Positions 19,624 to 53,086 of a stretch of 64,000 nucleotides of DNA are shown piece by piece. The notes below the pieces were generated by a model. That model saw only the letters and a list, made by a program, of their open reading frames with translations, did no database searches and was not told the DNA's origin. This DNA comes from Thermodesulfovibrionales bacterium. GTDB lineage: Bacteria; Nitrospirota; Thermodesulfovibrionia; Thermodesulfovibrionales; UBA6898. The translations under genes were made by a program, and so were the position numbers. The stretch's first letter is position 1. Each line of letters starts with the position of its first letter. The DNA lies in assembly GCA_044450345.1 (NCBI GenBank), contig JBIOIY010000003.1, positions 96,001-160,000 on the forward strand, in the 5' to 3' direction.

Positions 19624-19815
19624 TCAGGCTGCCTTGATGTCGGCCTTGCAAGGCCCTCCGATGTATTCATCATTATTGTCAAAGAAAAACTGGGAATTAT
19701 AGGTATTACAATTTGTCCATCCGTCGCCATTGCAATTTTCTATCCTGGCACATTCCAGATGCCTCGGGCTCATTCCGACCATATCACAAATTGTTTCTTT
19801 CATATAGGGACACAT
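19624..19815 (-). CDS. Small Cys-rich protein (C-P-x6-C-x17-C-x7-C family), 63 aa
   Basis: AAAGGAG SD before ATG 19815; MCPYMKETIC...ENCNGDGWTNCNTY; Cys spacing shared with other ORFs in the window. Confidence 0.7.
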   Translation of the reverse strand: MCPYMKETICDMVGMSPRHLECARIENCNGDGWTNCNTYNSQFFFDNNDEYIGGPCKADIKAA

Positions 19816-19874
19816 TTTGTTATCTCCTTTGATCATTTCGTTAAGGATTTGCTCGTCAAATGATTCGCAGAATA

Positions 19875-19918
19875 AGGTTAGCATACTCACGTTACATGAG
19901 TATGTCGGTTATATGAAA
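19875..19918 (-). promoter_or_regulatory. Partial Pho-box-like promoter for the Cys-rich ORF
   Basis: Minus strand TTTCAT-N5-CGACAT-N5-TGTAAC-N10-TAACCT. Confidence 0.5.
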
Positions 19919-20020
19919 TTTTGAAGGCCTTTTGAAGAGAGCAGGTCTTGGCCGTTTTCCTCAGCCTGAGAAAAGCAAAAAAGCCTTCTCTTACGACAGC
20001 GGTAGTCCGATGTATGGTCT

Positions 20021-20075
20021 CTTAACGTAATTATAACGTTCACTTCATCATCCTGTAATAAAGAGTAATTACCAT
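20021..20075 (+). promoter_or_regulatory. Pho-box-like promoter (dedA-DUF3047)
   Basis: CTTAAC-N5-TATAAC-N5-CTTCAT-N5-TGTAAT-N10-TACCAT. Confidence 0.75.
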
Positions 20076-20096
20076 ATAAGCAATGAGGCGGCATTC

Positions 20097-20732
20097 GTGA
20101 GCGAATTATTTGCACTGGTTGAGCGGTTTCCCGGTATTGCATTATTTATCCTCCCTATTCTCGGAAGTATTGGACTCCCAATTCCCGAGGACGCTATATT
20201 ATTTTTGTGCGGCATATTGATTTCAAAAAAAAGCGTTTTACCCCTTCCCGGGCTTATGTCGGTATATGCCGGCATTTTGCTCAGTGATTTTCTTATCTAT
20301 TCCTTCGGGCGGAAATATGGCCGCTGGATTGTTACGCATAAGATATTCCTGAAAATACTTCCCCCCGAGAAGCTTGTCCAGTTGGAACGTGGATTCATCC
20401 GTTCGGGTCCTCTTATCATCCTGTTTGCCCGGCAATTCTTTTGGCTGCGCGCAAAAGTTTTTCTCGCAGCGGGCATAATGAAAATGCCGGTTAAAAAATT
20501 CCTGTTTATGGACGGCATCGCAGCCTTGTTTACGATCGGTGTTATCGTAACGCTTGGATATACAGGGGGGACTTTTCTGTCATATTTCAACCGTATTTTA
20601 CCTCAAATCGGCCGGATAAGCGGGATAGTGGTTGTTGTCATTGCGAGTATGGCTTTTATCTACTGGCTCTTAATCTTGCGAAACAGAAAAATATCTAAAG
20701 AGTCCAGGCTCCAGCTGAGCTGGCATAGGTGA
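20097..20732 (+). CDS. DedA family membrane protein
   Basis: 'GLPIPEDAILFLCG', 'SDFLIYSFGRKYG' and 'ILFARQFFWLRAKVFLAAG'. Confidence 0.85.
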   Translation: MSELFALVERFPGIALFILPILGSIGLPIPEDAILFLCGILISKKSVLPLPGLMSVYAGILLSDFLIYSFGRKYGRWIVTHKIFLKILPPEKLVQLERGFIRSGPLIILFARQFFWLRAKVFLAAGIMKMPVKKFLFMDGIAALFTIGVIVTLGYTGGTFLSYFNRILPQIGRISGIVVVVIASMAFIYWLLILRNRKISKESRLQLSWHR

Positions 20733-21439
20733 AAACCGGGTGTGAAATACTGCGTAGACTTCTTCTGGCGACGATCATTGCTTCTTTGTTTTTCATTGAA
20801 GCAGACGGGGCCGCGGCGGGCCTGCCATCTCAACTTTTAATCGGCTTTGACGGACCAACACGGGATAATGGTATGCCTCAGCAGCCGTGGACCGTCAGAC
20901 TCAGGGAAGGAAAAGCCGGCGCGAGGGTGACATCGGACGGAGAGAGAAAAGTGCTCCATCTGAAATGCCTGAACTCGTCTTTTGCCGTTGAACGGAGCCT
21001 TGCTGTTGTCCCCAGCGAGTACCCTCTGGTAAGTTGGGAATGGAAGGCGGTGAAACTGCCGGCATCCGGTGATCTTAGGGAAAAAAGGCGGAATGACCAG
21101 GCAATGCAGATACTACTCGTCTTTGAAGGGAACAGAGTCATCAGTTACGTCTGGGACTCCAATGCCCCTGAGGGGACGATCAGAGATGAGTCTATCGGAT
21201 GGCCGCTTAACCTTCGGGTCAAGGTACTTGTAGTAAAGTCAGGGCATGAAGGCGTTGATACATGGCTTACGGCAATGCGGAATATTTACGAAGACTATAA
21301 GGCCTTGTTTCACGAAGAGCCTCTCCGACTTGTGGGACTGCGGGTCCAGATGAACACACAATACACGAAAGACAGTGCCGAGGGCTTCGTGGGGAAGATC
21401 GCATTTTCTCAGGATTACAGGGCTGCGGTGAGCCGGTAA
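20729..21439 (+). CDS. Exported DUF3047-like protein
   Basis: Signal peptide; 'YPLVSWEWK', 'ISYVWDS' and 'RNIYEDYKALF.EEP'. Confidence 0.7.
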   Translation: MKTGCEILRRLLLATIIASLFFIEADGAAAGLPSQLLIGFDGPTRDNGMPQQPWTVRLREGKAGARVTSDGERKVLHLKCLNSSFAVERSLAVVPSEYPLVSWEWKAVKLPASGDLREKRRNDQAMQILLVFEGNRVISYVWDSNAPEGTIRDESIGWPLNLRVKVLVVKSGHEGVDTWLTAMRNIYEDYKALFHEEPLRLVGLRVQMNTQYTKDSAEGFVGKIAFSQDYRAAVSR

Positions 21440-21496
21440 CCGGCTTATTCAAGATCTCTCGATTTCTGCATGCAAGCCTGCCGGGGAGCTCACGTT

Positions 21497-21551
21497 CTTC
21501 ATGATAATTTCATCAGGTTGTAATAATGACTTAACAAAAAGCGCGTATTAT
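21497..21551 (+). promoter_or_regulatory. Pho-box-like promoter (metallophosphoesterase)
   Basis: CTTCAT-N5-TTTCAT-N5-TGTAAT-N5-CTTAAC-N10-TATTAT. Confidence 0.75.
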
Positions 21552-21727
21552 TGGTATGCGAGAGTTTGTTCTTCTCAGCAGACGTTTAATCAACGAGAAA
21601 TATTCTGGGTCTTCCGGTAGAGGGGAGGAGGCGAGGGAACCGAAAATCAACTGCGGAAGGTAGAGGCGGCATGACAGGAGCAACTGGCAGGAAAACCAAT
21701 GTAAGCAGGCGAAGGAGGAATTTTGTA

Positions 21728-22885
21728 ATGTACCAAGAGAAGAAGGTATTTCGTTTCAAATCGGTAGTTACGTTTTCACTAAGCATGATAATGATCGCAG
21801 TGATGATGGTGAGTCTCGGCGGCTGTGGCAGTTCGTCCGATCCTCAGCCAGTGTTTAAGTTTGCCGTCTTCGACGACAGCCGGGCAGCCTCCGGCGCGAC
21901 GGGGACAAAAAACGGCGACAATAACGGTGCCGCGGCGCTCGTGGTGAACACCATTGCAAAGGACATTGCTACCCAGGGCGTAGATTTCGTTTTGTTTCCC
22001 GGCGACATGGTCAGCGGATATACCGACTCGACCACGTTAAGCTCTGAGTTGGACACCTGGAAAACAGCCATGGCGCCTGTCTACAGTGCCAACATCCCCG
22101 TCTATACCACTCGCGGAAACCACGAGTACGACGATCTGACCAATGGCACCGGCAACCCGGCTGATCCCAGCAGGGCGCCGTATCTGGCCCATTTCTCGAT
22201 GCCTACAAACGGACCGACGACCGGAGCTAACGGACTGAGTGAAGCGGGACTGACCTACTCCTTCACCTGGAAGAATGCGAAGATCATCGGGTTCGACCAA
22301 TATGCCGGTCGCAGCGCAACAACCTTCAACAACACCCTCTATGCGCCGGGTTCCAATAAAGGGCAGATGATGAACCCCTGGGTCCTCAACGAGGTCAATA
22401 ACTCCACCGCCGGCCTGACCTTTGTCATGGCCCACGAGGGTTTGTGGCCCACCAAGTCCCATCCCGACACCCTGGCCAACGACCCCGACAGCCGTGACGC
22501 CCTGGTGACCGCTTTGGCCGCAAAGAACGGCACGTATCTGGCCGGACATGACCACATGTTCCTCCGCGCCGTCACGAACAACGGCAGCGGCGGCAAGGTC
22601 CCGACGTTGGTCGTGGGCAGCGGCGGCGGAGGCAACTACGACTATGCCGAAGTGCCCTCCACTGTTTATAACGGCTACACCGGCAAGACTAATTACACTG
22701 TACAGAAGCACTTTGACAACAGCGCTAACCCATATTTCGGGTACGTGGTGATCACCGTCTATTCCGACAACACATGGAAAGGAGAATTCCACGGTTTCCA
22801 GTTCAACAAATGGAATGACGCAACAGACCACTCACTAACGCCGATCACGGTAATGGACTCATTCACTAGCGCTGACTTTAAATAA
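21728..22885 (+). CDS. Calcineurin-like metallophosphoesterase lipoprotein
   Basis: AAGGAGG SD before ATG 21728; lipobox LGGC; motifs FDDSR, PGDMV, RGNHE, MAHE and AGHDH. Confidence 0.85.
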   Translation: MYQEKKVFRFKSVVTFSLSMIMIAVMMVSLGGCGSSSDPQPVFKFAVFDDSRAASGATGTKNGDNNGAAALVVNTIAKDIATQGVDFVLFPGDMVSGYTDSTTLSSELDTWKTAMAPVYSANIPVYTTRGNHEYDDLTNGTGNPADPSRAPYLAHFSMPTNGPTTGANGLSEAGLTYSFTWKNAKIIGFDQYAGRSATTFNNTLYAPGSNKGQMMNPWVLNEVNNSTAGLTFVMAHEGLWPTKSHPDTLANDPDSRDALVTALAAKNGTYLAGHDHMFLRAVTNNGSGGKVPTLVVGSGGGGNYDYAEVPSTVYNGYTGKTNYTVQKHFDNSANPYFGYVVITVYSDNTWKGEFHGFQFNKWNDATDHSLTPITVMDSFTSADFK

Positions 22886-22924
22886 ACAGACACGATGGCC
22901 CTGAAGGGTTCGGCTTGCAACGAG

Positions 22925-22958
22925 AAAGCCGCCGGGAAGATCCCCGGCGGCTTTTATT
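22925..22958. terminator. Intrinsic terminator between convergent genes
   Basis: aaagccgccggg-aagatc-cccggcggctttt. Confidence 0.8.
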
Positions 22959-23033
22959 GTCTGGATACGACGGAAGATACGTGAGGCCGGAGGCGCAGAG
23001 GTCCAGACCGGAGACCTCTGCCGGGGCATGATT

Positions 23034-24392
23034 CTATAACAATTTTGCGCCCTGCTGGGCCAACCGGGACCTTACGCTCTCGCTCAGATTCAGGAAACAG
23101 AAGTTCTCCTCCTGTATGAACTTACTGATCAGATATGCGAGTCCGTTGCTCATGGCATCCAGATAAGGTGTATCTATCTGATCGAGGTCGCCGGTGAAGA
23201 CGATTTTAGTCCCCTCGCCGCATCTCGTGATGATCGTTTTGACATCCAACGGCCGGAGGTTCTGGGCCTCATCAATGATGAAGTATCTCCTCGGCAGGCT
23301 TCTTCCCCGGATATAGGTAAGGGCCTCGATCTGGAGCACGCCTGAATCGATCAAATATTGAAAACTCTTATATCCATAGAGGGCGGTATTGTCCTTTACC
23401 TGGTCTTTCGGCGTGCGTACTATGACCTCGAGACTATCGAAGATCGGCTGCATCCAGGGCGCAAGTTTCTCGCCCACATCTCCGGGAAGGTAGCCGATAT
23501 CATTTCCCATAGGAACAATCGGTCTTGCCACGACTACCTGCTCGTAGAGGGGCGATTTTTTCGTTGTCTGATGTATTGCGGCGGCCAGAGCGAGGAGGGT
23601 TTTGCCTGTTCCCGCGGTTCCGGTCAACGCCACAACCTCGATATCGGGGTTGATCAGGGCATCGATTGCGCATCGCTGCTCGATGTTCTTCGGAGATATG
23701 CCATCGAGCGATTTGCCATTTCTGATCTTTGATGCGCCGTCCCTTCCAATCAGCCGATATATATCATCGGCTTCTTTCAGATACCTGACGGAATGAATGC
23801 CGTTACGGTAATCACCATCGTTCAGAACTTTCCCGTACTGTTTGAATATCGATGTCTTGTCGTTTTTGTAATCCTCCGCATTAAGACCGAAAGACTCGGC
23901 CTTTATTCTTACCGCAGTGTCCTTTGACACCAGTATCACGCGAGGCGCCACCCCGTTTTTGTCCAGGGATTCAGATCTGGCGATTGAAAGGGCGGTGCTG
24001 ATGATCTGGTTGTCCTCAACGCTGCAGTCAAGGGTAGAAGGCGCCGCCTCATTCTGCCCGGTGCTGACTAAAAGGACACCGCCCTGCTTCAGGGTTATCC
24101 CGGACGAGAGAGAACCTCTTTCCCTCAGGGAGTCTATTATCCTCAAGACCTTCCTCGCAGAAGCTGCAATTTCTCCCGGGCCTTTTTTTAGCCTGTCAAG
24201 CTCTTCGATTACGACAAAGGGGATTACAATATCGTTCTCATCGAACCTGAAGATCGAACTTGGATCGTGAATCAGGACATTGGTATCGAGCACGAAGATT
24301 TTTTTTGTCTCTTCCGGTTCCCTTTCACCGCAATAGTGATGCAAGGGACTTTTCAATTCGGACACCTTGTTCATAGGACCCTCCGTAGACAT
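23034..24392 (-). CDS. phoH: PIN-PhoH (PhoH2/YlaK-type) protein
   Basis: PIN motif 'FVLDTNVLIHDP'; Walker A GTAGTGKT; 'IGYLPG', 'YIRGRSL', 'IIDEAQNL' and 'GDLDQID'. Confidence 0.9.
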   Translation of the reverse strand: MSTEGPMNKVSELKSPLHHYCGEREPEETKKIFVLDTNVLIHDPSSIFRFDENDIVIPFVVIEELDRLKKGPGEIAASARKVLRIIDSLRERGSLSSGITLKQGGVLLVSTGQNEAAPSTLDCSVEDNQIISTALSIARSESLDKNGVAPRVILVSKDTAVRIKAESFGLNAEDYKNDKTSIFKQYGKVLNDGDYRNGIHSVRYLKEADDIYRLIGRDGASKIRNGKSLDGISPKNIEQRCAIDALINPDIEVVALTGTAGTGKTLLALAAAIHQTTKKSPLYEQVVVARPIVPMGNDIGYLPGDVGEKLAPWMQPIFDSLEVIVRTPKDQVKDNTALYGYKSFQYLIDSGVLQIEALTYIRGRSLPRRYFIIDEAQNLRPLDVKTIITRCGEGTKIVFTGDLDQIDTPYLDAMSNGLAYLISKFIQEENFCFLNLSESVRSRLAQQGAKLL

Positions 24393-24538
24393 ATTTTATT
24401 TAAAGCGGGAAAGTGCCGGAAAATAAATCGACAGGGGAATAAAGCATACTGCAGGCCGCAGGGAAATGCGTCATGGCCGAAAATTCTTGCAGCGGCGCTA
24501 TGTAACTGAGTCAAGATAGCTGCCATTCAATTAGTTAC

Positions 24539-24571
24539 ATTATGGCATACAATTGTTACAGTAACGTTACG
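24539..24571 (-). promoter_or_regulatory. Pho-box-like promoter (phoH), two in-phase repeats
   Basis: Minus strand CGTAAC-N5-TGTAAC-N10-CATAAT. Confidence 0.6.
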
Positions 24572-24681
24572 TTTCTGATAAATTACATCTTCGAAAAATA
24601 AAATCCTTGATAAATCTTATTAATTTCCGCTGCGGTATTGAAGGACCTCGACGGATCAAGCAGGTAAACACGGCCTCGCGA

Positions 24682-24736
24682 TTTCATGGATGTGTAACGG
24701 CATCGTCATCGAATGGTAAAGTTGCCGGTGTATAGT
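24682..24736 (+). promoter_or_regulatory. Pho-box-like promoter (mgsA)
   Basis: TTTCAT-N5-TGTAAC-N5-CGTCAT-N5-GGTAAA-N10-TATAGT. Confidence 0.72.
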
Positions 24737-24768
24737 ACATGGTAACTACCAGGAAAGGGGAGTGACAT

Positions 24769-25254
24769 ATGGATAAGAAGACAAAGGAGATTTTCATGAG
24801 AGAGCGGAAGAAGATAGCCCTCGTTGCTCATGACAACAAGAAAAAAGACCTGCTCGAGTGGGTGCTTTATAACAAGGACGTGCTGTTGGCGCATGATTTG
24901 TACGCGACAGGAAGTACCGGAAGCATGCTCTCGGGAGCTTTGGATACCCCCGTATACTGCTTCAAAAGCGGGCCCCTCGGTGGAGACCAGCAGATAGGGG
25001 CGAAGATTGCTGAAGGAGAGATTAATCTCGTTATTTTTTTCTGGGACCCCCTGGAGCCCCATCCCCACGATGTCGACGTAAAGGCCCTTCTCAGAATAGC
25101 CGTTGTGTACAATATTCCTATCGCTTGCAACAGGGCATCGGCCGACTTTATCATTTCCTCACACCTCCTGAACGAACAATACCCGAGGATCGTGGTTGAT
25201 TACGAAAGTGTCCAGATTGCCAGGAACAATGAATTGAATGATCCGTCCCGATAA
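24769..25254 (+). CDS. mgsA: Methylglyoxal synthase
   Basis: IALVAHDNKK, ATGSTG, SGPLGGDQQIG, FFWDPLEPHPHDVDVKALLR and CNRASAD. Confidence 0.96.
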   Translation: MDKKTKEIFMRERKKIALVAHDNKKKDLLEWVLYNKDVLLAHDLYATGSTGSMLSGALDTPVYCFKSGPLGGDQQIGAKIAEGEINLVIFFWDPLEPHPHDVDVKALLRIAVVYNIPIACNRASADFIISSHLLNEQYPRIVVDYESVQIARNNELNDPSR

Positions 25255-25333
25255 TGTGAAGTGAGTCGGCCGGACAGCGGTGAGGGCGGGAATCGGTAGC
25301 TCGGCGTAGGCCCGTCAAAGTCCGCAAGACATT

Positions 25334-25388
25334 TGTAATAGAAATGTAATGTTTCCTTCACACTGCGGTAATATTTGTCCTTTACACT
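25334..25388 (+). promoter_or_regulatory. Pho-box-like promoter (second phoB)
   Basis: TGTAAT-N5-TGTAAT-N5-CTTCAC-N5-GGTAAT-N10-TACACT. Confidence 0.78.
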
Positions 25389-25428
25389 AATCATACCCTA
25401 TGACACCTGATCTTAACATATAGGCATT

Positions 25429-26124
25429 ATGCCTGATATTCACAAAATTCTTGTTGTTGACGACGAACCTGATATTGTCGATTTGGTGTCCTACAATCTC
25501 AAAAAAGAGGGTTTTACCGTATCCACGGCATCTGACGCGGAAGAGACATTGGAAAAAATCAGGACGGGGGACTTTTCCCTTATTCTCCTCGATCTGATGC
25601 TCCCCGGCATGCAGGGCATGGAACTCTGCCGGATCCTCAAGAAGGACGCCAAAACAGAAAATCTCCCCATTATCATGCTTACGGCAAAGGTCGAAGAAGT
25701 CGACAGGGTCCTCGGCCTTGAGTCCGGCGCTGACGACTATATCACAAAGCCCTTCAGCCCAAGGGAACTGGTTGCGCGTGTCAAGGCAGTCCTGAGGAGG
25801 TCGGCCTCGAAGGCCGCAGATGAGGATATTATTCGGATCGGAGAACTCATCATCAACAAGGGAACCTATACGGTGACAAAGGGTGATTCACTCTTAGATC
25901 TCAGCGCCACCGAGTTTAAACTGCTTCTCTATCTTATAGAAAAAAAAGGGAAGATATGCGACCGGGAGCATCTGTTGAAGGCCGTATGGAAATACGATGC
26001 CTACGTTGAACCGAGGACAATCGATGTTCACATAAGAAGGCTTAGGACACAACTTGAAGACGACCCTGCAAATCCCAGGCATATCAAAACGAAGAGGGGG
26101 ATCGGTTATTATTTTGAGGCATGA
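25429..26124 (+). CDS. Orphan PhoB/PhoP paralog (copy 2)
   Basis: Close paralog of 15337..16038 (LDLMLPG.QGMELCRIL, LDLSATEF, EPRT.DVHIRRLR, KTKRGIGYY); no adjacent kinase. Confidence 0.88.
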   Translation: MPDIHKILVVDDEPDIVDLVSYNLKKEGFTVSTASDAEETLEKIRTGDFSLILLDLMLPGMQGMELCRILKKDAKTENLPIIMLTAKVEEVDRVLGLESGADDYITKPFSPRELVARVKAVLRRSASKAADEDIIRIGELIINKGTYTVTKGDSLLDLSATEFKLLLYLIEKKGKICDREHLLKAVWKYDAYVEPRTIDVHIRRLRTQLEDDPANPRHIKTKRGIGYYFEA

Positions 26125-27380
26125 CAAACCCTAACAAGAGAACTTCTTCCGACACTGGATTCCTCTGGGGTGTAGCAACATCCGCCTTTCAACTCGAAGG
26201 CTCGCCCTATGCGGACTGGACGACGTGGGATGAAATACTAAGTGAAAAGCCCGACATCACCAATCATTACATCCTCTATAAGGAGGACCTGGCCTTATTA
26301 AAAGACCTCGGCGTAAACGCCTACCGTTTTTCTCTCGAATGGAGCAGGATACAGCCGCGCGAAAGAGTCTGGGACGAGAAGGCGATAAGACATTATCAGG
26401 AAATTGTCGAGATACTCGTGGACAACCACATTGAACCGATGCTTACCCTGAATCACTTCACTCATCCCTTCTGGTTCATGAAAAAATATCCATGGCATGA
26501 AGATGCATCGGTCGAAAAATTCCTCATCTTTGTGGAAAAGATGGTCCGGACATTTGAAGGGGTGAGGTATTGGATCACATTCAATGAACCGTATGTGCTT
26601 GTCCTCGCCGGCTATTTTGAGGGCTGTACGCCCCCCGCTATCAAAGATGCATCGCTGGGGGTGAAAGCCTTGACGAACATCCTTAAGGCCCATGGGCGGG
26701 CCTATGATGTAATCCATTCACATATTCCGGATGCGATGGTGAGCATAGCGCACAATATGGCATCATTTGCCCCATGGAGCAAATGGAACCCCCTTGACAG
26801 ACTCCTCGTAAAGATCGCGAAACACTTTTACAACCATTCCCTTCTGGATGCTTTTCTGAGCGGCTCCCTAAGTATCAAATTCCCATTCAGGAAGGCGATC
26901 GAAATCGCAGTCCCTATCAAGGGTAAGCTGGACTTTTTCGGCGTCAACTACTACACAAGGATGCATCTTCGCTTCAATCCATTAAAAAAAATGGGGATTG
27001 AGATGAGACACAGGGACATCGACGGGCACGGACTTACCGACATGGGATGGGAAATCCACCCTCGAGGGCTCGAAAAGGTCCTGCGCAACGCGTCGAAACT
27101 AAACGTTCCCCTGATAATTACGGAAAACGGCATTGCCACCCGCGACAGTCAGAAGAAGATACGGTTTATGCAGCGGCACATTGATGTTCTGGAGAAGTGC
27201 AGACGGGAAGGGAGGGACATCAGAGGATATTTTTACTGGACCCTGATCGACAACTACGAATGGCTCCAAGGGCTTGATTCGCGGTTTGGGCTGTATACCG
27301 TTGACTTTCAGACCCTGGAACGCAGACCGACGAACGCAGCTGCATACTATTCATATCTTATTAAGAGCAGAAAGCTCTGA
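26121..27380 (+). CDS. Glycoside hydrolase family 1
   Basis: FLWGVATSAFQLEG, YRFSLEWSRI, TFNEP (acid/base), ITENG (nucleophile) and DNYEW. Confidence 0.92.
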   Translation: MTNPNKRTSSDTGFLWGVATSAFQLEGSPYADWTTWDEILSEKPDITNHYILYKEDLALLKDLGVNAYRFSLEWSRIQPRERVWDEKAIRHYQEIVEILVDNHIEPMLTLNHFTHPFWFMKKYPWHEDASVEKFLIFVEKMVRTFEGVRYWITFNEPYVLVLAGYFEGCTPPAIKDASLGVKALTNILKAHGRAYDVIHSHIPDAMVSIAHNMASFAPWSKWNPLDRLLVKIAKHFYNHSLLDAFLSGSLSIKFPFRKAIEIAVPIKGKLDFFGVNYYTRMHLRFNPLKKMGIEMRHRDIDGHGLTDMGWEIHPRGLEKVLRNASKLNVPLIITENGIATRDSQKKIRFMQRHIDVLEKCRREGRDIRGYFYWTLIDNYEWLQGLDSRFGLYTVDFQTLERRPTNAAAYYSYLIKSRKL

Positions 27381-27409
27381 TCTGCTGCTTTTTCTTCCTC
27401 ACCCGTAAT

Positions 27410-27464
27410 CTTAACAAGAATGTAATCCTTCCTTAATGATGCCGTAACGATCATATCGTAAGCT
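27410..27464 (+). promoter_or_regulatory. Pho-box-like promoter (PHP-glycosyltransferase operon)
   Basis: CTTAAC-N5-TGTAAT-N5-CTTAAT-N5-CGTAAC-N10-TAAGCT. Confidence 0.8.
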
Positions 27465-27502
27465 AACAACAGTATGGTAAACAAATTGAGAATTAGGCCG
27501 TA

Positions 27503-28195
27503 ATGCTGCTGTGTGATTTCCATATCCACACTACCTATTCAGACGGCTCGGTGGAGCTGAGAAGGACAATCGATTTATTCGGACAGGCAGGCTTCGATGT
27601 CATTGCAATAACAGACCATGTGGTGAATGGTGATAATCCACTGGGCAAACTTGCACATCGTTTTAAGTATTCTGTAACAGCCGCTAACTTTGGCAAATAT
27701 ATCTCCCACATAAAAGAAGAAGCGGAAAGGGCCCAGGACAAATATGACATGCTCGTCATCCCCGGAATTGAAATAACCAAAAACCATCTCAGCCCGGACA
27801 ACTCAGCCCACATGCTGATCATCGATATCCAGGACTTTATCCCCGCCTGCATGGGGTATGAAGAGATATTCCTGGCGGCGAAGAAACAGAAAGCCCTGAC
27901 GATAGCTTGCCACCCGCATTATATGTCGGCGAAGAGCGACCGGGACACGCTTTTTCTCTGGAACAACAGGGAAAAATATGCACGCTACATCGATGCCTGG
28001 GAGATCGCTAACAGAGATGACGTCTTCAATGTTATTAGCCTGAAAAAGTATCCTTATATCGCAAACAGCGACTTCCATAAGCCCAGACATCTTTACTCCT
28101 GGAAGACGCTTCTGAATTGCGCGAAGGGCATAGACTCCATAAAGCAGTGCATCAGACATAACAAGGGTGTTGCATTGACGCTCTTCAGAAATTAG
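27503..28195 (+). CDS. PHP-domain phosphoesterase
   Basis: DFHIHTTYSDG, AITDH, PGIEIT, CHPH and ANSDFH. Confidence 0.88.
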   Translation: MLLCDFHIHTTYSDGSVELRRTIDLFGQAGFDVIAITDHVVNGDNPLGKLAHRFKYSVTAANFGKYISHIKEEAERAQDKYDMLVIPGIEITKNHLSPDNSAHMLIIDIQDFIPACMGYEEIFLAAKKQKALTIACHPHYMSAKSDRDTLFLWNNREKYARYIDAWEIANRDDVFNVISLKKYPYIANSDFHKPRHLYSWKTLLNCAKGIDSIKQCIRHNKGVALTLFRN

Positions 28196-28198
28196 GAG

Positions 28199-29413
28199 GT
28201 GAACATGATTTTATTCTGGATCTTTGCAGGCATTACCTGCTTTGGGATGATCGGATATCTGCTTCAAATTGTCGCGGTCCGGTCATATACGGCTCCCCCC
28301 AACTCAGGGGAAAGCATGCGCTTTCCCCGATCTTTTTCTCCTGTCTCAATCCTTAAACCGCTCAAAGGTCTTGATGACGGCCTGTTCGACAACCTCGAAA
28401 GCTTCTGCAATCTTGATTATCCTCACTATGAGATCATCTTTGCACTGCAGAACCAGAATGACCCGGCCCATAAAGTGGTAAGGAAGATAAAGGAGAAATA
28501 CCCTTTAAAAGACATAACCATTGTCGTCGAACATTGCGATGAGGGGCTGAACCCCAAAGTAAACAATCTTATCCCGGCGTACAAAAGGGCCAAATATGAC
28601 CTTATATTGATCAGCGACAGTAATGTCCGCGTGGGAAAAGACTATCTGGCGGATATTTCTCAGCACATGGATGACCCGTCTGTGGGGCTTGTCAGCAATA
28701 TGATCAGGGGCGTAAGCGGTCGGTCCCTTGGCGCCGTTATGGAAAATCTCCACCTGAACTCCTTTATAGTGGGAAGCGTCTGCTTCCTCGACAAATATCT
28801 CAAGATGCCTTGTGTCGTGGGCAAGTCAATGCTGATGAGGAAGACCGACCTCGAAGCTATAGGGGGTTTCTCGTCCGTAAAGGACTTTCTTGCGGAGGAC
28901 TACATCATCGGCGAAAGAATTCACGCGCTCGGCAAAAGGGTCGTCCTTTCCTGTCATCTTATCAATAATGTCAATGAATACTGGGGCGTAAAGAGGTTTT
29001 TAAACCGTCATACAAGATGGGGAAAGCTGAGATGGCACATCGGAGGCGCAAAGTATTTCTCTGAATTGGCCGGCAATGCCGTGTTCATGTCCTTTATGCC
29101 GGTGGTCATAATGCCGATGTCCAAAGTGTCTTTATTGTTGGCTGCGGCCGTCAGTTCCCTGAAAATAGTTCATGATTTCTACATCGGCAAAAAACTTCGT
29201 GCTGATATGAATCCCCTTCTCTATTTGTTGTCCCCTGTCAAGGACCTTATTATCGGATTCGTATGGTTTGTGCCGATCCTGAGCAACACCGTGGCCTGGA
29301 GAGGCAACAGATATATCATCGGCAAGGACTCGGTGCTCTCACGCTATCCCGATGACAGTTTCTGGTCGTGGCGGTACAGGATCATGGACGTAATAAAAAC
29401 AAGGATTGCATAG
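28199..29413 (+). CDS. Ceramide-glucosyltransferase-like (GT21/HpnI-like) lipid glycosyltransferase
   Basis: N-terminal TM; 'VSILKPLKG', 'NPKVNNL', 'ISDSNV', 'LAEDY' and 'RHTRWGKLR'. Confidence 0.85.
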   Translation: MNMILFWIFAGITCFGMIGYLLQIVAVRSYTAPPNSGESMRFPRSFSPVSILKPLKGLDDGLFDNLESFCNLDYPHYEIIFALQNQNDPAHKVVRKIKEKYPLKDITIVVEHCDEGLNPKVNNLIPAYKRAKYDLILISDSNVRVGKDYLADISQHMDDPSVGLVSNMIRGVSGRSLGAVMENLHLNSFIVGSVCFLDKYLKMPCVVGKSMLMRKTDLEAIGGFSSVKDFLAEDYIIGERIHALGKRVVLSCHLINNVNEYWGVKRFLNRHTRWGKLRWHIGGAKYFSELAGNAVFMSFMPVVIMPMSKVSLLLAAAVSSLKIVHDFYIGKKLRADMNPLLYLLSPVKDLIIGFVWFVPILSNTVAWRGNRYIIGKDSVLSRYPDDSFWSWRYRIMDVIKTRIA

Positions 29414-29437
29414 CGCATGCATGATAAGGAGGTGCCA

Positions 29438-29647
29438 GTGCATTGCTCGCTCAATCAAATCCCGACTGACAATCGGTTGCACGCGGACCATTCCTGCTGC
29501 CCTTACAATGGTGCAGCCACCGGCATATGTTCCGCATCCCTTTCTACAATGATGATTGTTCCAAGCATGAGGGAAGGATATTGCGAAAATGAGAATTACG
29601 ATAATTGCCCTATTTTCTTATCCAAAATCCTGAGAAAAAAGACATAA
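29438..29647 (+). CDS. Small Cys-rich protein (C-P-x8-C-x17-C-x7-CPIF)
   Basis: AAGGAGG SD before GTG 29438 (alternative ATG 29417); shared Cys spacing. Confidence 0.72.
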   Translation: MHCSLNQIPTDNRLHADHSCCPYNGAATGICSASLSTMMIVPSMREGYCENENYDNCPIFLSKILRKKT

Positions 29648-29674
29648 TCCGTGTCTTCTTATATGGAGGTGTGC

Positions 29675-30046
29675 GTGACGCAACAGAAAAAGATACTTAT
29701 CATCGATGACGACATCCGATATCTTGTTGATGCGAAACGCTGTTTGCAGTCTCGTGGCTATGCGGTGAGTATCCATGAGTATTCAGCCGGCTCGCCTGTC
29801 ATGATCAGAAATATGAAGCCGGATGTTGTGTTACTCAATATCAGAATGGGTGACCTGTCCGAGGAGAAACTATCATACCTCCTCGGTGCAAACCGGCATG
29901 CACGGGGAGTTCCCGTGGTATTCTATTCCTCCCATGACGAGGAAGGCCTCAGGAATGCCGCCGTCCGCCACGAGGCCGAGGGATATATCCGCAAAGGCGA
30001 CGTCTCCCTGCTTTGCGATGAGATAGGTGTTTTTTGTCCCCATTGA
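29675..30046 (+). CDS. Stand-alone receiver domain with the phospho-acceptor Asp replaced by Asn
   Basis: 'KILIIDDD', 'PDVVLLNIRM', 'PVVFYSS' and 'GYIRK'; GGAGG SD before GTG 29675. Confidence 0.75.
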   Translation: MTQQKKILIIDDDIRYLVDAKRCLQSRGYAVSIHEYSAGSPVMIRNMKPDVVLLNIRMGDLSEEKLSYLLGANRHARGVPVVFYSSHDEEGLRNAAVRHEAEGYIRKGDVSLLCDEIGVFCPH

Positions 30047-30096
30047 ATCGAGAAACAAGATTTACTTGAGGAGATCAAAAGGTGGAGAAGAGAAGC

Positions 30097-30651
30097 ATGG
30101 ATAAAATCGCAATCATTGATATAGACAATACTTTGTGGCAGTTCAGCGATGCCTTCTTTGAAGAACTGAGAAAGATAAACAAGGACTTCCCGACACCGGA
30201 AAACTGGACACATTGGTGGAGTATATGGCAGGGATATTGTACTGAGCAGGATTTTTATGGGGCGATAAATGCTATTCACATGAAGCAAGACAGCGACAAT
30301 TATCAGCCCTATCCTGAAGCCAAAAGCTTCCTTTCGGGGATGAAACAAAGTGGCTATCATATCACCATAGCGAGTCACCGTTCCCCTGAGTTTATGGACC
30401 AGACTGAGAGATGGCTGAAAAAGCACGGATTGCTGCATGACGATATCTACCTGTCCCACCATAAGACCGAGTTATTCAATACAGAGACAAATGTGGTGGT
30501 GGACGATGCACCAGAGGTATTGGAGAGGGCAGTTGAGAATGGAGCGTTAGCAACGGGATTATTATTTCCCTGGAATCGTGCCTTTCGTAATAATGGGTTC
30601 AGGCTTTGCAGTAACCTTGATGAGATATTGGATGGTATCCTGAAGCAGTGA
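30097..30651 (+). CDS. HAD-superfamily phosphatase (5'(3')-nucleotidase NT5C-like)
   Basis: DIDNT motif I, 'ASHR', 'VVDDAP' and 'FPWNR'. Confidence 0.78.
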   Translation: MDKIAIIDIDNTLWQFSDAFFEELRKINKDFPTPENWTHWWSIWQGYCTEQDFYGAINAIHMKQDSDNYQPYPEAKSFLSGMKQSGYHITIASHRSPEFMDQTERWLKKHGLLHDDIYLSHHKTELFNTETNVVVDDAPEVLERAVENGALATGLLFPWNRAFRNNGFRLCSNLDEILDGILKQ

Positions 30652-30973
30652 GTATATCTATCCCGGAAAAAACCGGTGTTCAACAAGGATGGTGATTTAA
30701 TCTGGTATACGGAGGCAGCTACCTTTTGTTGAAACGTATAGAAAGATTGATCGCTATTATAATTGATCTGTTAAAAAGCCTTGCATTGCTTGAGTATTCG
30801 GTTGATATCCTTGAATCGGTCGAAAAAACCCACGGGGGCGGAATTAATTCTTCTGATTAATGTTTGCAGTACGTGCACGAGAGACGCAAAATCATTTCTC
30901 CAACAGGAAAGCATGATATATCAAGTCGTCTTTCAATTTAATGACCCGTGCATCCTTGGTTTTAAAGCAGGTG

Positions 30974-31585
30974 TTATATTTTGACCAGATCGAGTGTCAC
31001 CTTGATAGCCGCTCCGATCAGTGCGGCTTCTTCTTTGCTCATCTCGCCCAGGCTACCGCGTCTTTCTGTCATTCTCCGGAAACGCGTGAAGTCCGTCGGT
31101 AGTGCTTCGGTGTCTATCAAATACGCGATCCCCTGAATAATCTCGCCTATTCTTTCCGGAGATTTTGCTTCTCCTTCCAGTTTGGCGAAATACTGAACCT
31201 TGATTTTCGCCCTGGTGACGTCATAGTCCACGTCCTTCACGCGATGAAGCGCCAGAATTGCGTAATCGCCTAGGGCTTGCCAGAATAGTTCGTCATATTC
31301 TTGCCACTTTGGCAGCGAGAAGCGCAGTAACGCGGGCCTTTTTCTTCCTATCTGCGGGATGCATTTTTCAAGCGCGACAACTAAATCCCCAACCTTGTTC
31401 TTGTCTATCTGATCAAGCATCTCATATAGCTTGCGCCGCTGATGTCTCCGAAGGAGCTTCTCGATCTGCTCCAATACGTTCCCCTGTCCAGGGTGCGTGC
31501 CTAATTTATCGAGAACATTGTTCGTTGATTTATCCATGACATTCCTTCCCGGGACGCTGTCTTTTCTAGATGATACTTGACACAT
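30974..31585 (-). CDS. Hypothetical protein (start may be the Met of MDKSTN)
   Basis: 203-codon ORF with plausible helical composition; no recognised motif. Confidence 0.5.
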   Translation of the reverse strand: MCQVSSRKDSVPGRNVMDKSTNNVLDKLGTHPGQGNVLEQIEKLLRRHQRRKLYEMLDQIDKNKVGDLVVALEKCIPQIGRKRPALLRFSLPKWQEYDELFWQALGDYAILALHRVKDVDYDVTRAKIKVQYFAKLEGEAKSPERIGEIIQGIAYLIDTEALPTDFTRFRRMTERRGSLGEMSKEEAALIGAAIKVTLDLVKI

Positions 31586-31640
31586 CGGGATGAGTCAAGC
31601 GGTGAATGGTTTGGGTAGAGAGACTCACCTTTGTCCGCCC

Positions 31641-31710
31641 GGCAGGGCTCAAACCGGAACAGGTGGCCCGGCTAAATCGGAATCAATAGTCTGAATACTC
31701 CGAAAAATGC
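31641..31710. mobile_element. Possible degenerate IS21-family terminal repeat remnant
   Basis: ~23-bp internal repeats 'aaaccggaac aggtggcccggctaaatcggaat ... ccgaaaaatgc' resemble the GTGGCCG..AAATCGGAAT repeats at IS21 ends; no transposase nearby. Confidence 0.35.
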
Positions 31711-31744
31711 TTTTCCCCTTGATGTAATAAGAAACATTTATACA

Positions 31745-31800
31745 TGTAACAGAAAATTAACACTCCTTTAATAATCCATTAACAGACCGTTTGCTATGCT
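31745..31800 (+). promoter_or_regulatory. Pho-box-like promoter (Cys-rich ORF)
   Basis: TGTAAC-N5-ATTAAC-N5-TTTAAT-N5-ATTAAC-N11-TATGCT; an extra in-phase TGTAAT at 31723. Confidence 0.78.
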
Positions 31801-31819
31801 ACTGACCAGGGAGGCAACT

Positions 31820-32008
31820 ATGAATATACAATACATTATCTGTCCCCATCTTAAAGGCAGTTATGACGGAGCGGTCTGCAGCAGCGTCAGCAAGTTGATC
31901 AAGAACATAGAAGACGTCACCATTAAATTGTGTATGGGCAGGCATTACGAGGTATGCTCGATATATCGGGAGTCTCTGCTCCCTCAGGAGCCTGTCAGTG
32001 CCATTTAA
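31820..32008 (+). CDS. Small Cys-rich protein (C-P-x10-C-x17-C-x7-CSIY), 62 aa
   Basis: GGGAGG SD before ATG 31820; shared Cys spacing. Confidence 0.75.
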   Translation: MNIQYIICPHLKGSYDGAVCSSVSKLIKNIEDVTIKLCMGRHYEVCSIYRESLLPQEPVSAI

Positions 32009-32122
32009 GATATGACGCGGACAAGGAAGTCAGTTAGGCCTCTTTGGCATTTCACGGATTGCCGATGTGTCGATCTTACTCGCCGTCGCCTTGCAAAATT
32101 CAGTTCGGACCAGCCGGAAAAA

Positions 32123-32178
32123 TTTCATATTCCCTTAACTTAAATGACATCATGCCGTAAAAACCAAAATGATATCCT
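32123..32178 (+). promoter_or_regulatory. Pho-box-like promoter (HMA-like and two Cys-rich ORFs)
   Basis: TTTCAT-N5-CTTAAC-N5-TGACAT-N5-CGTAAA-N11-TATCCT. Confidence 0.65.
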
Positions 32179-32212
32179 TAAACTGGATTGTATTTGGAAG
32201 AAGGAAACTCGA

Positions 32213-32506
32213 ATGATCACCTATATCATCAAACATCATGTCCCGGGGCAGATAAGGCTGGATGTTCCTGTATTGAGAAAAATTGCCGAGTATCGGCTAA
32301 AAAAGATATCGAAGGCCGTGACAAGGCTTCCCGTCTTTACGGGAATAAGAGACCTTACGGTAAATCCAGGGAACGGCAGCGTAGCTATTGAATATGACAC
32401 CGAAGTTGTCGATATCATAGATTATCTGGAAGACATGGCAGTTATTGTCGAAACGCTGGATTGTCTGGAAGGACAAACGCTGGATTGTCCGGAAGGACAC
32501 CGATGA
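32213..32506 (+). CDS. Cys-less HMA-like (HMA2-type) domain protein
   Basis: 'KHHVPGQIRLDVP...GIRDLTVNPGNGSVAIEYD'; AAGGA SD before ATG 32213. Confidence 0.7.
   Translation: MITYIIKHHVPGQIRLDVPVLRKIAEYRLKKISKAVTRLPVFTGIRDLTVNPGNGSVAIEYDTEVVDIIDYLEDMAVIVETLDCLEGQTLDCPEGHR
32451..32498 (+). repeat. 24-bp tandem duplication with 1 mismatch
   Basis: aaacgctggattgtctggaaggac / aaacgctggattgtccggaaggac. Confidence 0.9.
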
Positions 32507-32517
32507 AGGAGAAAGAT

Positions 32518-32679
32518 ATGGCTTGTATTGATTATCTGGAGACAGAGGCAAGGTGTTCGAGAGGGATCCCGGTCGCGCATCTTTTCAGGCGTTTCTTCTG
32601 TGAGTCAAAGCCTGAAAAATGCCCGATTGTCTTGTGGGAAGTATCTTCTCGGGCGATAGATAACACTAAATCATCCTAA
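32518..32679 (+). CDS. Small Cys-rich protein, divergent member (C-x9-C-x14-C-x6-CPI)
   Basis: AAGGAG SD before ATG 32518; MACIDYLETEARC...FFCESKPEKCPIV. Confidence 0.6.
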   Translation: MACIDYLETEARCSRGIPVAHLFRRFFCESKPEKCPIVLWEVSSRAIDNTKSS

Positions 32680-32689
32680 GGAGGAAGCC

Positions 32690-32869
32690 ATGCAGTGCCC
32701 GAATCTTTTGAAATGGGTAATATCATCATGCAAAGCCGTGGAGAGACCCTATGTCCCGAGCCTTTTTGAGCTGGAGGAGTATTGTAGCACCGGAGATCAC
32801 AGGAAGTGTCCTTTTTACATGAGAGACATCGTCAGGCCCAATACTGTGAGGGATAAAGTGTCCGCATAA
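32690..32869 (+). CDS. Small Cys-rich protein not in the ORF track, 59 aa (C-P-x9-C-x17-C-x7-CPFY)
   Basis: AAGGAGG SD; translated by hand as MQCPNLLKWVISSCKAVERPYVPSLFELEEYCSTGDHRKCPFYMRDIVRPNTVRDKVSA*. Confidence 0.8.
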   Translation: MQCPNLLKWVISSCKAVERPYVPSLFELEEYCSTGDHRKCPFYMRDIVRPNTVRDKVSA

Positions 32870-33129
32870 CATCTCAAGACTTAGTCTGATAATCCCACTT
32901 CTATGGAGAAAAAGGCAGCGTTAAAGAGGGCTCGCGTGGGTCTCAGGTGTACGCGGTAACCCCTTCATGCATCGCTGACCACTACCATTAAATAGTATCC
33001 CCGGCATGAATAAAGTGCCACGGTTTTGCGGCAGAGCTTAATAGGTAAGTAATGAAAGAAGTGTTAGACAATGTGCCGTTTCAGGCGATAGACTGAACTA
33101 TATATTAAGGATTCAAGGAGAGTATTCGT

Positions 33130-33423
33130 ATGGGATTGCTTGATGATGTATTTAAAGGCGGCAATGTTATAACGGGCTTGGCTATCGGCATCGGAGCAGC
33201 GGTGCTTGGACCGGTTGTATTGCCTATATTGGCCGGGGCTGCGAAACCTTTGGCAAAGGCCGCGATAAAGGGCGGCCTTGCGCTGTGTGCAAAAGGAAAG
33301 GAGTCAGCTGCCGAGTTCGGCGAGGTCTTTGAAGATATTGTTGCAGAAGCGAAAGCGGAACTCGCGGAAGAGCACGAAAAGGCAATTCCTGTTCCGCCTA
33401 CCGAAGCGGAACAAAGTGTCTAA
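33130..33423 (+). CDS. DUF5132-like small GxxxG membrane protein (FezA-like)
   Basis: 'GLAIGIGAAVLGP...KPLAKAAIKGG...GEVFEDIVAEAKAE'; TAGACA-17-TAGACT promoter and AAGGAG SD. Confidence 0.75.
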   Translation: MGLLDDVFKGGNVITGLAIGIGAAVLGPVVLPILAGAAKPLAKAAIKGGLALCAKGKESAAEFGEVFEDIVAEAKAELAEEHEKAIPVPPTEAEQSV

Positions 33424-33901
33424 TATCCCGGAAGCATTTATAGGCCATAAGATGACGGGCAGGTTGAGACTAAGGGTCCCGTCGAGAAGAGGAGATGGCG
33501 CATATCTGGGAAAAATCACTGAGGAATTCTCATCTCTCCCGGGCATTGCGCAGGTAATCGTGAACACCGAAACATCGAGCGTTCTCTTCCTGCATAATCT
33601 TTCAGAAGACGCAATTATGGGACATCTCAGTGCAAGCGGTCTGTTCAGAATTTCGGGGGCTCCCACAGGTCAAGGAGACGTGCATAGCGGAGTCAAAGGA
33701 TGTTTTCGGGAGATGTCCCGCAAAGTCGAGAAGGCGACGGGAGGAACGATGGGTATCAGTGAAGTTGCCTTCCTTGCGCTGTTCGGCGCCGGGGTCATGC
33801 AGATAGGTCGGGGGAATTTTACTGCGATCCCCTGGTACACGGCATTTTGGTATGCGCTTAATATCTTTCTGAAATCAGACGCACAGAAGGCCGGGGAATA
33901 G
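33416..33901 (+). CDS. HMA-like domain with C-terminal hydrophobic segments (FezC-like)
   Basis: GTG 33416 overlaps the upstream stop; 'HKMTGRLRLRVP...VNTETSSVLFLH'; C-terminus 'FLALFGAGVMQI...PWYTAFWYA'. Confidence 0.72.
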   Translation: MSNIPEAFIGHKMTGRLRLRVPSRRGDGAYLGKITEEFSSLPGIAQVIVNTETSSVLFLHNLSEDAIMGHLSASGLFRISGAPTGQGDVHSGVKGCFREMSRKVEKATGGTMGISEVAFLALFGAGVMQIGRGNFTAIPWYTAFWYALNIFLKSDAQKAGE

Positions 33902-34029
33902 CTGTACTCATCCTGTCTGAAGGTGAAGGCGCAATAAACCCGGAGAGTTCTATTTTTTCATCAGCCTTTTGAAAAAGATGAATGGCTCAGTCAAAAAGTA
34001 ACTTTTCTCAACAGAGAAGGAGGTCAGTT

Positions 34030-34710
34030 ATGTCTCAGGAAAAAGTCATGCGCGGCACTCGTTACGCAGAAGAGGTAAGCGAGGCCGGGACGACCGTAAA
34101 AGAGGGCGTAGTCAGCAGCCTTAAAGGTCTCAATGAGATTGAGGCGGAAATCGTGAGCCTCGTGAGGAACACGGTTTCCAACACTTTGCGTGCAACGGGA
34201 GAGGTGGCGATCGAAAGTATCTCCATTTCGAAAGACGTCATCAAGGGGGCTATCCAGGCCACAGAGGAGGTTGGAACAGGACTTATCCTGAGCACGAAAA
34301 GTGTTGCCAAAGGGGTGATCATGGGGGTGAGTGATGTAGGCGGCGATGTGGTAGCTGTTGCAGGCCAGACAGTAAAAGGCGCGGTAAAGGGGGCCGCTGA
34401 AGTCGGCGCGGATGTCGCCCTTGTTGCAAGGAGAGCGGTCGATGGCGTCATCGAGGCAACAAAGGAGATAGGGGGGAATGTGGAAGATGTCGCGAAAGTG
34501 GCAGTCGGAGGGGCGATTGAGGCTGCAGGGACAATAGGTAATACGGCGGTGAAGGCTGTTAGGGAGATGCTCGTCGGCGTGGTCGAGGGCGTAAAGGAGA
34601 TTGCGAGCGCAGCTCTGCCTAAACCGAGGACCTCCACACCGGAGACAAAAGCGCCTGCATCAAAACCGGTTGTTGCGGAAAAAGCGGCTGCGACCAGGAA
34701 AAAGAAGTAA
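34030..34710 (+). CDS. Gly/Ala/Val-rich 22-residue helical repeat protein with a Lys/Ala/Pro tail
   Basis: AAGGAGG SD before ATG 34030; at least 7 tandem 22-aa units; paralog at 42706. Confidence 0.8.
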   Translation: MSQEKVMRGTRYAEEVSEAGTTVKEGVVSSLKGLNEIEAEIVSLVRNTVSNTLRATGEVAIESISISKDVIKGAIQATEEVGTGLILSTKSVAKGVIMGVSDVGGDVVAVAGQTVKGAVKGAAEVGADVALVARRAVDGVIEATKEIGGNVEDVAKVAVGGAIEAAGTIGNTAVKAVREMLVGVVEGVKEIASAALPKPRTSTPETKAPASKPVVAEKAAATRKKK

Positions 34711-34722
34711 GAATAATACCCC

Positions 34723-38990: not shown

Positions 38991-39083
38991 GAGACTTATG
39001 ATAGCCGGGTACGTGTCGATCCTTCCGGTGGCCCGTTAAGAAGGCATCTACCGGTTGTAAGCGCCCCGCTTTTTTTGTTCTCC

Positions 39084-39139
39084 TGTAACGAAAACTTCAC
39101 GGTAGCGTCAACTTCCCTTAACGTTCCATCCGTTACAAT
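39084..39139 (+). promoter_or_regulatory. Pho-box-like promoter (olsB/olsA-like pair)
   Basis: TGTAAC-N5-CTTCAC-N5-CGTCAA-N5-CTTAAC-N11-TACAAT. Confidence 0.75.
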
Positions 39140-39173
39140 TCACCTGTCAATTTCTTCGACAGGGAGGTGCGAC

Positions 39174-53075: not shown

Positions 53076-53086
53076 TCATTCGGGAG

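Follow-up and report, generated by a model that had tools for sequence, protein, structure and literature searches.

The question raised by the 64,000-nucleotide stretch investigated here (Thermodesulfovibrionales bacterium, phylum Nitrospirota, assembly GCA_044450345.1, contig JBIOIY010000003.1, positions 96,001 to 160,000 of the forward strand; referred to below as the window) is what five small open reading frames (ORFs), all coding for cysteine-containing proteins of similar layout, are doing among genes of phosphate starvation. These ORFs were designated D, F, E, G and B, and their positions are collected in Table 1. Judging from alignments and profile searches, they represent an undescribed superfamily of cytoplasmic proteins of ~55-75 residues with a single module, C-P-x(6-11)-C-x17-C-x7-C-P/x-x-[FY], and the promoter regions of its members indicate that in Nitrospirota this family is a core part of the phosphate-starvation (Pho) regulon. 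The joint reading favoured here, in which an unnamed four-cysteine (Cys4) superfamily is Pho-controlled in Nitrospirota, folds around one metal and provides small partner modules for signalling proteins, is put forward tentatively, at slightly below an even chance.

The preliminary description of this DNA had placed five ORFs here, four of them with a leading Cys-Pro, exact spacings of 17 and 7 residues and an aromatic residue three positions after the last Cys. All five were recovered, and the shared pattern of D, F, E and B was both read from the translations and found by regular expression. The same description had taken G as a shortened fifth member, which is a fair rendering of a protein with x14/x6 spacing. 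D carries a fifth cysteine (C22 in the 63-aa form) that is invariant in 8/8 aligned D-type sequences; the x17/x7 frame is held by numbers 2, 4 and 5 of its five invariant cysteines. Shine-Dalgarno-like AGGAG/GGAGG motifs were found ~4-8 nt before the start of each of the five genes, as had been claimed; F begins with GTG after AAGGAGG, with an alternative in-frame ATG at 29417. No signal peptide was seen by eye, and the cysteine module begins at residue 2-3 in D, G and B. The paralogs of this genome show pairwise identities of 16-27%.

All six frames of the 3,192,456-base genome were searched with the strict pattern C-x6-12-C-x17-C-x7-C-x2-[YFW]. Six matches were obtained, all starting with CP; four lie in the window and two on other contigs of the same genome (C20:18603-18839, minus strand, and C27:2563-2751, minus strand). 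Six shuffled genomes yielded 0, 1, 1, 0, 1 and 1 matches, none of them with CP. With profile matches added, the genome holds nine copies, the additional ones being a C-type gene (x14/x6) adjoining the C27 copy and one gene on contig C26. The latter, the ninth copy (C26:32702-32917, identical to L064:5003-5218, where L-numbers denote fetched loci), has x17/x7 spacing and a Leu instead of the aromatic residue at +3.

Conservation was measured by pairwise Nei-Gojobori ratios of nonsynonymous to synonymous substitution (dN/dS) against orthologs in other genomes. The ratios were 0.09-0.10 for D, 0.04 for F, 0.18 for E, 0.42 and 0.12 for G, and 0.10-0.33 for B. The check for purifying selection on which the coding interpretation had been made to depend thus gave values between 0.04 and 0.42 in all five, so that this interpretation could be kept, and the ratios indicate that the five ORFs are real, conserved coding genes under purifying selection.

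Relatives were found in large numbers. For B, 15 homologs (52-85 aa) were retrieved, which share 18 invariant positions, and a profile of the eight paralogs then known retrieved 107 proteins of 52-105 aa, all of them unnamed or 'hypothetical' and none with a Pfam domain. An 81-member profile was then compared with 1.84 billion representatives of clusters formed at 50% identity; it matched 666 of them at E<=1e-3 and 31 at E<=1e-10. Almost all of the best 150 of these 666 representatives are 55-130 aa long, and among the best 149 the x17/x7 spacing is kept in 127 and x14/x6 in 11. The F/A type forms the largest subfamily, with 118 of 256 sequences. Comparison with hhalign gave 97% (E 1e-10) for B against F/A, 80% (E 1.4e-5) for E and 79% (E 1.7e-5) for D, in each case with all four cysteines aligned, which supports the homology of B, D, E and F within one superfamily; aligned invariant cysteines, the x17/x7 frame and a significant profile-profile match were found together in these four. 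For G, with its deviating spacing, hhalign yielded 24% against B (E 8.2e-4) and 6% against F/A (E 6.8e-3), and its homology to the rest of the family by profile comparison is doubtful. Because these matches are low, the membership of G rests on the similar layout and order of its conserved positions and on its constant place before B. It stands directly upstream of B in seven loci, including the window, and in locus L013, from a close relative, G and B lie within one open reading frame. The earlier view of an expanded paralogous family is borne out by the nine genome copies, the 666 clusters and the profile matches between subtypes.

A family match was detected in 31 of 41 related genomes, including 22 of the 24 from the window organism's own family; a single genome has as many as 10 matches, and these are often arranged in tandem. 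Across the phylum, 102 of 251 sampled genomes had a match (49/60 in bacterial family f20 of this sample and 16/19 in f6), and the searched genomes of f10 (0/10), f25 (0/28) and f27 (0/17) gave none. The related loci derive from Nitrospirota, Thermodesulfovibrionales and 'Candidatus Sulfobium'. Certain pairs of subtypes recur, namely G-B, F-E, F-D, F-B and C-B. Sequencing runs sharing words with this DNA came from metagenomes of peat and soil and contained no more than 0.48 of its words; no RNA run was among those listed.

No named family could be assigned, in agreement with the preliminary description. Scans of the five proteins and of the 81 aligned members against Pfam and NCBIfam gave nothing above cutoff. 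A profile search of the PDB returned at best a eukaryotic zinc finger at E 0.19, matching the N-terminal flank only, and in the ESM Atlas the nearest clusters were unnamed and mostly from Nitrospirota, while a search limited to named entries gave no usable match. Weak matches to DUF7838 (PF25208) were seen in 18 of the 81 members, with a best E of 0.0017 and a top score of 19.3 bits, where the cutoff is 28.5. They are limited to the first ~30 residues of A/F-type members with an additional CPxC-like knuckle and cover profile positions 2-41 of 55. An identity with DUF7838 was rejected, the matches being partial and below the gathering cutoff and none being obtained with any of the five window proteins. 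A search of the literature on the Pho regulon and on small or cysteine-rich proteins yielded no paper on a family of small four-cysteine proteins.

The link to phosphate starvation was investigated through arrays of 7-nt units, [TC][GT]TAA[CT]A, repeated every 11 bp upstream of genes. A matrix was built from 22 units picked by eye in the window, and arrays of four units were scored. Only 13 arrays in the genome score at least 20, and ten of these lie in the window; one of the others, outside the training set, precedes the A-type copy on C20 by ~215 nt. The highest-scoring array of the genome stands ahead of the pst-phoU operon, and the element can therefore be anchored as a Pho box. The array before E has the same position in five other loci. 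F has no array of its own and follows PHP and GT21 in a boxed operon, a layout that recurs in other genomes. D is preceded by a weak array (12 is reached by 20 of 3124 ORFs as background) and shares its intergenic region with the stronger array of the divergent VTT/DedA gene, the units of which were used in training; D is probably also under a Pho-box promoter. G and B lack an own array, and the run to which they belong opens with HMA_2, whose score is 6.2. For G and B, Pho control would thus require read-through from E; this could occur, since no terminator-like site was found on the plus strand between 32008 and 32869. The claim that all five lie behind a Pho-like box or in a Pho-boxed operon accordingly held for E through its own box and for F through its operon, was weak for D, and did not hold directly for G and B.

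Pho boxes and neighbourhoods were also checked in homologs, as had been proposed. For this, 39 loci were fetched, all but L064 from other genomes. The first 20 loci contained 50 arrays in 224 kb, typically 15-60 nt before pstS, PHP, a regulator gene or family genes, and arrays were likewise placed in the second set, from other families and classes. Once three false positives of the regular expression had been dropped, an own array within 300 nt of the start was observed for 21 of 63 family ORFs, and for 29 of 63 when the head of the same-strand run was counted; among the ORFs of this genome with 150 aa or more, taken as background, 7 of 3124 have such an array. These frequencies indicate that the Pho link of the family is real and that many Nitrospirota members, E and F included, are transcribed from Pho-box promoters.

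Part of the family, comprising the C-type and some B-like genes, is evidently not Pho-linked and stands behind sigma-54 or LuxR-type two-component systems. C-type genes without an array directly follow pairs of a PAS kinase and a sigma-54 regulator on C27 and in six fetched loci, and B-like genes follow a LuxR-type regulator, beside a sigma-70-family gene, in two loci. A-type copies without a strong array were found in L016 (16.1) and L017 (20.0, just at the threshold), and the array score of the B-type copy in L032 was -1.6. The copy on C26 lies downstream of a group II intron reverse transcriptase, and its best upstream array scores 12.2.

Table 1. Positions of the Cys4 genes, receiver domains, neighbouring genes and four-unit arrays (window coordinates, or locus and coordinates where an L-number is given)
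Feature	Position	Strand	Remarks
D	19624-19815	-	63 aa; C-P-x6-C-x17-C-x7-C-NTY
F	29438-29647	+	C-P-x8-C-x17-C-x7-C-PIF
E	31820-32008	+	62 aa; C-P-x10-C-x17-C-x7-C-SIY
G	32518-32679	+	53 aa; C-x9-C-x14-C-x6-C-PIV; without leading CP, without aromatic residue at +3
B	32690-32869	+	59 aa; C-P-x9-C-x17-C-x7-C-PFY
B-receiver fusion	L071:2671-3240		Pfam Response_reg, E 1e-24 to 1e-25
B-receiver fusion	L070:1281-1832		Pfam Response_reg, E 1e-24 to 1e-25
B-receiver fusion	L072:1051-1617		by eye only
Stand-alone receiver after F	29651-30046	+	Pfam Response_reg; Asn replaces phospho-acceptor Asp (LLN, not LLD)
pstS-pstC-pstA-pstB-phoU	52065-56365	+	each above curated NCBIfam cutoff
PHP phosphoesterase	27503-28195	+	Pfam
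GT21 glycosyltransferase	28199-29413	+	Pfam; precedes F
HMA_2 (CoBaHMA-type)	32144-32506	+	Pfam E 8.6e-7, 29.5 bits against cutoff 30; heads G-B run
DUF5132, second HMA_2, 242-aa protein without family, P-type ATPase with HMA_2 N-terminus	33130-37782	+	Pfam; downstream run
Weak array before D	19890-19929	-	score 13.0
Array before VTT/DedA gene (20097-20732)	20021-20060	+	score 26.1; intergenic region shared with D
Array before PhoB-like regulator and GH1 operon	25334-25373	+	score 31.7
Array before PHP-GT21-F operon	27410-27449	+	score 31.1
Array before E	31745-31784	+	score 34.5; ends 35 nt before start
Array before pst operon	51982-52021	+	score 37.0

The surroundings of the five genes are those of a phosphate island. 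The window encodes two PhoB-like regulators (15337-16038 and 25429-26124) and a PhoR/PnpS-like kinase, the best matches being PhoB and PnpS just under cutoff; the PhoB-like regulator behind the array at 25334-25373 reached 267 bits in NCBIfam against a cutoff of 296. Further island genes identified by Pfam were PhoH, metallophosphoesterase, GH1, PHP, GT21, HAD and OlsB/OlsA-like genes. The order PHP-GT21-F is found in six other loci, and in one more, L025, an alkaline phosphatase gene lies between GT21 and F. For the GT21 protein itself, the best NCBIfam match was HpnI, a hopanoid glucosamine glycosyltransferase, which at 247 bits stays below the cutoff of 310. A Pfam scan of 243 neighbour ORFs (95 and 148 from the two locus sets) revealed pstSCAB-phoU, PHP-GT21, GH1, PhoH, PsiE, alkaline phosphatase, LMWPc, metallophosphoesterases and HMA_2/DUF5132/P-type ATPase, and Pho-type neighbours were present in eleven bacterial families (f1, f4, f5, f6, f9, f11, f12, f15, f17, f18 and f20). 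The HMA_2 domain has been named CoBaHMA in a preprint (bioRxiv 10.1101/2024.07.07.602159). The HMA_2/DUF5132/ATPase set was also seen beside Cys4 and pst/phoU genes or Pho boxes in five other loci, and in the window its run, spanning 32144-38990, also contains a gene resembling S-adenosylmethionine synthetase.

An OlsB-like (Acetyltransf_5) and an OlsA-like (Acyltransferase) gene at 39075-40759 suggest ornithine-lipid synthesis in the island; in L019, OlsB/OlsA-like genes are flanked by a B-type gene and pstS. The close relative carries, in the stretch L013:15412-15840, an LMWPc gene between E and HMA_2. At this place, 32009-32143, ~430 bp are gone from the window, leaving a 43-aa ORF (32012-32143), and tblastn revealed no good copy of LMWPc elsewhere in this genome, which is 91% complete. 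Further strong arrays of the window were located at 45139-45178 and 51685-51724 on the minus strand and at 46633-46672 and 51844-51883 on the plus strand. The genes nearest downstream of these four arrays (44444-45064, minus strand; 47225-47701, plus strand; 50993-51361, minus strand) gave no match in NCBIfam.

A possible function is indicated by receiver domains. Fusions of a B-type module with a receiver domain (REC), in single ORFs of 184-189 aa, occur in three genomes belonging to two genera, placed after a sigma-54 response regulator and a C-type gene; they were found from open-frame lengths in the genome profile-search results. F adjoins a stand-alone REC gene in the window and in four fetched loci. 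These receivers are orthologous, with 37-43% identity between genera and 89% between the window and L013. The acceptor Asp is kept in L026, L059 and L061 and replaced by Asn in the window and L013, so that the receiver of the window may be a pseudo-receiver. Two further ORFs join a family module to other sequences. In L067 (3418-6210), a family ORF is in frame with a twin-arginine (Tat)-signal molybdopterin oxidoreductase, 931 aa in all, with an internal Met just ahead of the twin-arginine motif that could be the start of the enzyme itself. In L073 (909-1469, minus strand), an F-like module continues in frame into a hydrophobic segment with a lipobox-like motif and then ~100 more residues, a layout like that of membrane-anchored anti-sigma factors or, alternatively, two genes without a stop between them. 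Both ORFs may reflect adjacent genes lacking an intervening stop.

In the favoured reading, the four invariant cysteines would hold one metal centre (Zn, or Fe-S or Fe) and thereby fold the mini-domain. Less firmly, the proteins would not be enzymes but docking or adaptor modules on signalling proteins, above all on REC domains. Under phosphate starvation, or for other subtypes under a system of the sigma-54 or LuxR type, small partners adjusting a downstream response would then be made, often as pairs of differing subtypes (G-B, F-E or F-D, and C-B). Adaptor modules are preferred to enzyme subunits on account of the REC fusions, the stand-alone REC genes, the subtype pairs and the lack of a constant enzyme neighbour. 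Nothing specific speaks for the suggestion that the proteins regulate neighbouring enzymes and transporters, since the neighbours differ from locus to locus; it is receiver domains that recur as partners. A more far-reaching proposal is that the Cys4 module is a new output or partner domain of receiver domains, dependent on metal or redox state, which is carried in cis (B-REC) or acts in trans as small hetero-pairs and would tie phosphate starvation to other regulons as well as to the metal or redox state; this proposal is improbable.

Several observations weigh against the favoured reading. The array scores within the window are circular, the matrix having been trained there. The B-REC fusions all come from a single bacterial family and from sigma-54 surroundings, not from a Pho context, and a search for longer, fused homologs gave no match, which is weak evidence. 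The REC next to F belongs to a different subfamily, with 17-20% identity to the fused RECs, and in the window it lacks the acceptor Asp; beside most Pho-linked copies, a REC neighbour is missing altogether. The median net charge of the subtypes ranges from -4.5 (D) to +7 (G), and because the charges differ so widely a single common target is not obvious. Binding of nucleic acids by charge was likewise not supported, the subtypes being acidic to basic. AlphaFold2 predicted a hairpin and two helices, but the models were poor, with a predicted local distance difference test (pLDDT) value of 52 for the superfamily alignment and 55 for the B-type alignment, and are not interpretable at these values; a Foldseek comparison of these models with the PDB gave no match at E<=0.001. 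A predicted complex of B, G and two Zn scored 0.01 and was used neither for nor against binding.

Among other explanations, metal or metalloid handling is unlikely. The proteins would serve as thiol carriers, buffers or redox partners, either for As(III)/arsenate via Pst or for the cation of the HMA_2/P-type ATPase, and would be induced with the Pho regulon as phosphate starvation brings in arsenate or alters metal demand. This would fit the LMWPc gene, which follows E in five loci and heads the pst operon in another, and the L013 LMWPc sequence, in which a CX5R loop and a later Cys pair could be read by eye, features typical of thioredoxin-coupled arsenate reductases. It would also fit the position of G and B inside the HMA_2/DUF5132/ATPase run in the window and L013, and the occurrence of this set beside family genes elsewhere. 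However, only four cysteines are conserved in ~60 residues, together with Pro, Tyr, Glu and Phe positions, so that the protein looks like a folded domain and not like a metallothionein-like buffer. Moreover, the LMWPc gene has gone from its place in this genome while E has been retained, and many copies have neither neighbour. A role as accessory subunits of Pho-induced enzymes or transporters, F with the GT21 glycolipid synthase and B with Pst or PhoU, is distinctly improbable. F does directly follow GT21 in the window and in six other loci, and B or F adjoins pstS in six, but F occurs without GT21 in eight loci, B is also found in the sigma-54 and LuxR loci, and no enzyme neighbour is constant.

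It is highly improbable that the genes encode precursors of ribosomally made, cysteine-modified peptides, an idea that the small Cys-containing products and a B12-binding radical SAM gene directly upstream of the F-type gene of L054 might suggest. Among the 39 loci, genes for a maturase, protease or exporter do not recur, and the module is conserved from residue 2-3 right through to its end, neither a variable core nor a leader being seen. That the ORFs arose by chance or are non-coding regulatory DNA of a Pho island has a practically negligible probability: they are short, but this reading is contradicted by dN/dS values far below 1 and by hundreds of homologs with invariant cysteines, and the pattern count above that of the shuffled genomes and the Shine-Dalgarno motif before each start also speak against it.

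The family touches on one of the best-studied bacterial stress responses: phosphate-starvation regulons are well known, yet in an entire lineage up to five copies of an unnamed family lie at their core. To this lineage belong nitrite oxidisers as well as sulfate reducers from soil, peat and groundwater. Small proteins are systematically missed by annotation. With 666 clusters and a fixed cysteine frame, the family is a target for a new Pfam entry and poses the questions of its metal and of its binding partners. The receiver-domain fusions offer the first testable lead to function and, if the link to receiver domains is true, would point to a new class of small modulators in two-component signalling.

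Compared with known small cysteine proteins, the family resembles rubredoxin or zinc-ribbon knuckles, DksA/TraR C4 fingers, ZAS anti-sigma domains and WhiB-like Fe-S proteins in size, in its four cysteines, in cytoplasmic location and in a likely regulatory or protein-binding role, but its module has no CxxC at all. A rubredoxin or zinc-ribbon type was therefore rejected, the two CxxC (CPxCG-like) knuckles being absent and no Pfam match reaching cutoff. WhiB-like Fe-S proteins, with the spacing C-x(14-22)-C-x2-C-x5-C, were excluded by the family spacing of x6-11, x17 and x7 and by the lack of a Pfam match, and ZAS anti-sigma domains by the absence of their H-x3-C-x2-C motif from the alignments and of a Pfam (zf-HC2) match. 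DksA-type C4 fingers have ~17 residues between two Cys pairs, and the DksA/TraR fingers are thus similar in this gap, but in the family each Cys stands alone, and no profile match was obtained. The two-component connectors PmrD, SafA, MzrA and Sda are small proteins whose production is governed by one signalling system and which bind a kinase or regulator, either of that system or of a different one. There is no sequence relation to them, and to our knowledge the known connectors are neither cysteine modules nor members of large paralogous families, but the family is like them in being small, and its REC fusions and REC or kinase neighbours would fit. A further parallel is with the PhoB/PhoP regulons. 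The up to five copies of a small four-cysteine protein in one island, for which no literature counterpart was found, set this locus apart from known Pho regulons; in its regulatory layout it is like them. The unit [TC][GT]TAA[CT]A is close to the repeats of Bacillus PhoP, TT(A/T/C)ACA, and to the Pho box of E. coli, and here too 7-nt/11-bp arrays stand just upstream of the genes, with a PhoB-like regulator, a PhoR/PnpS-like kinase and the pst operon alongside.

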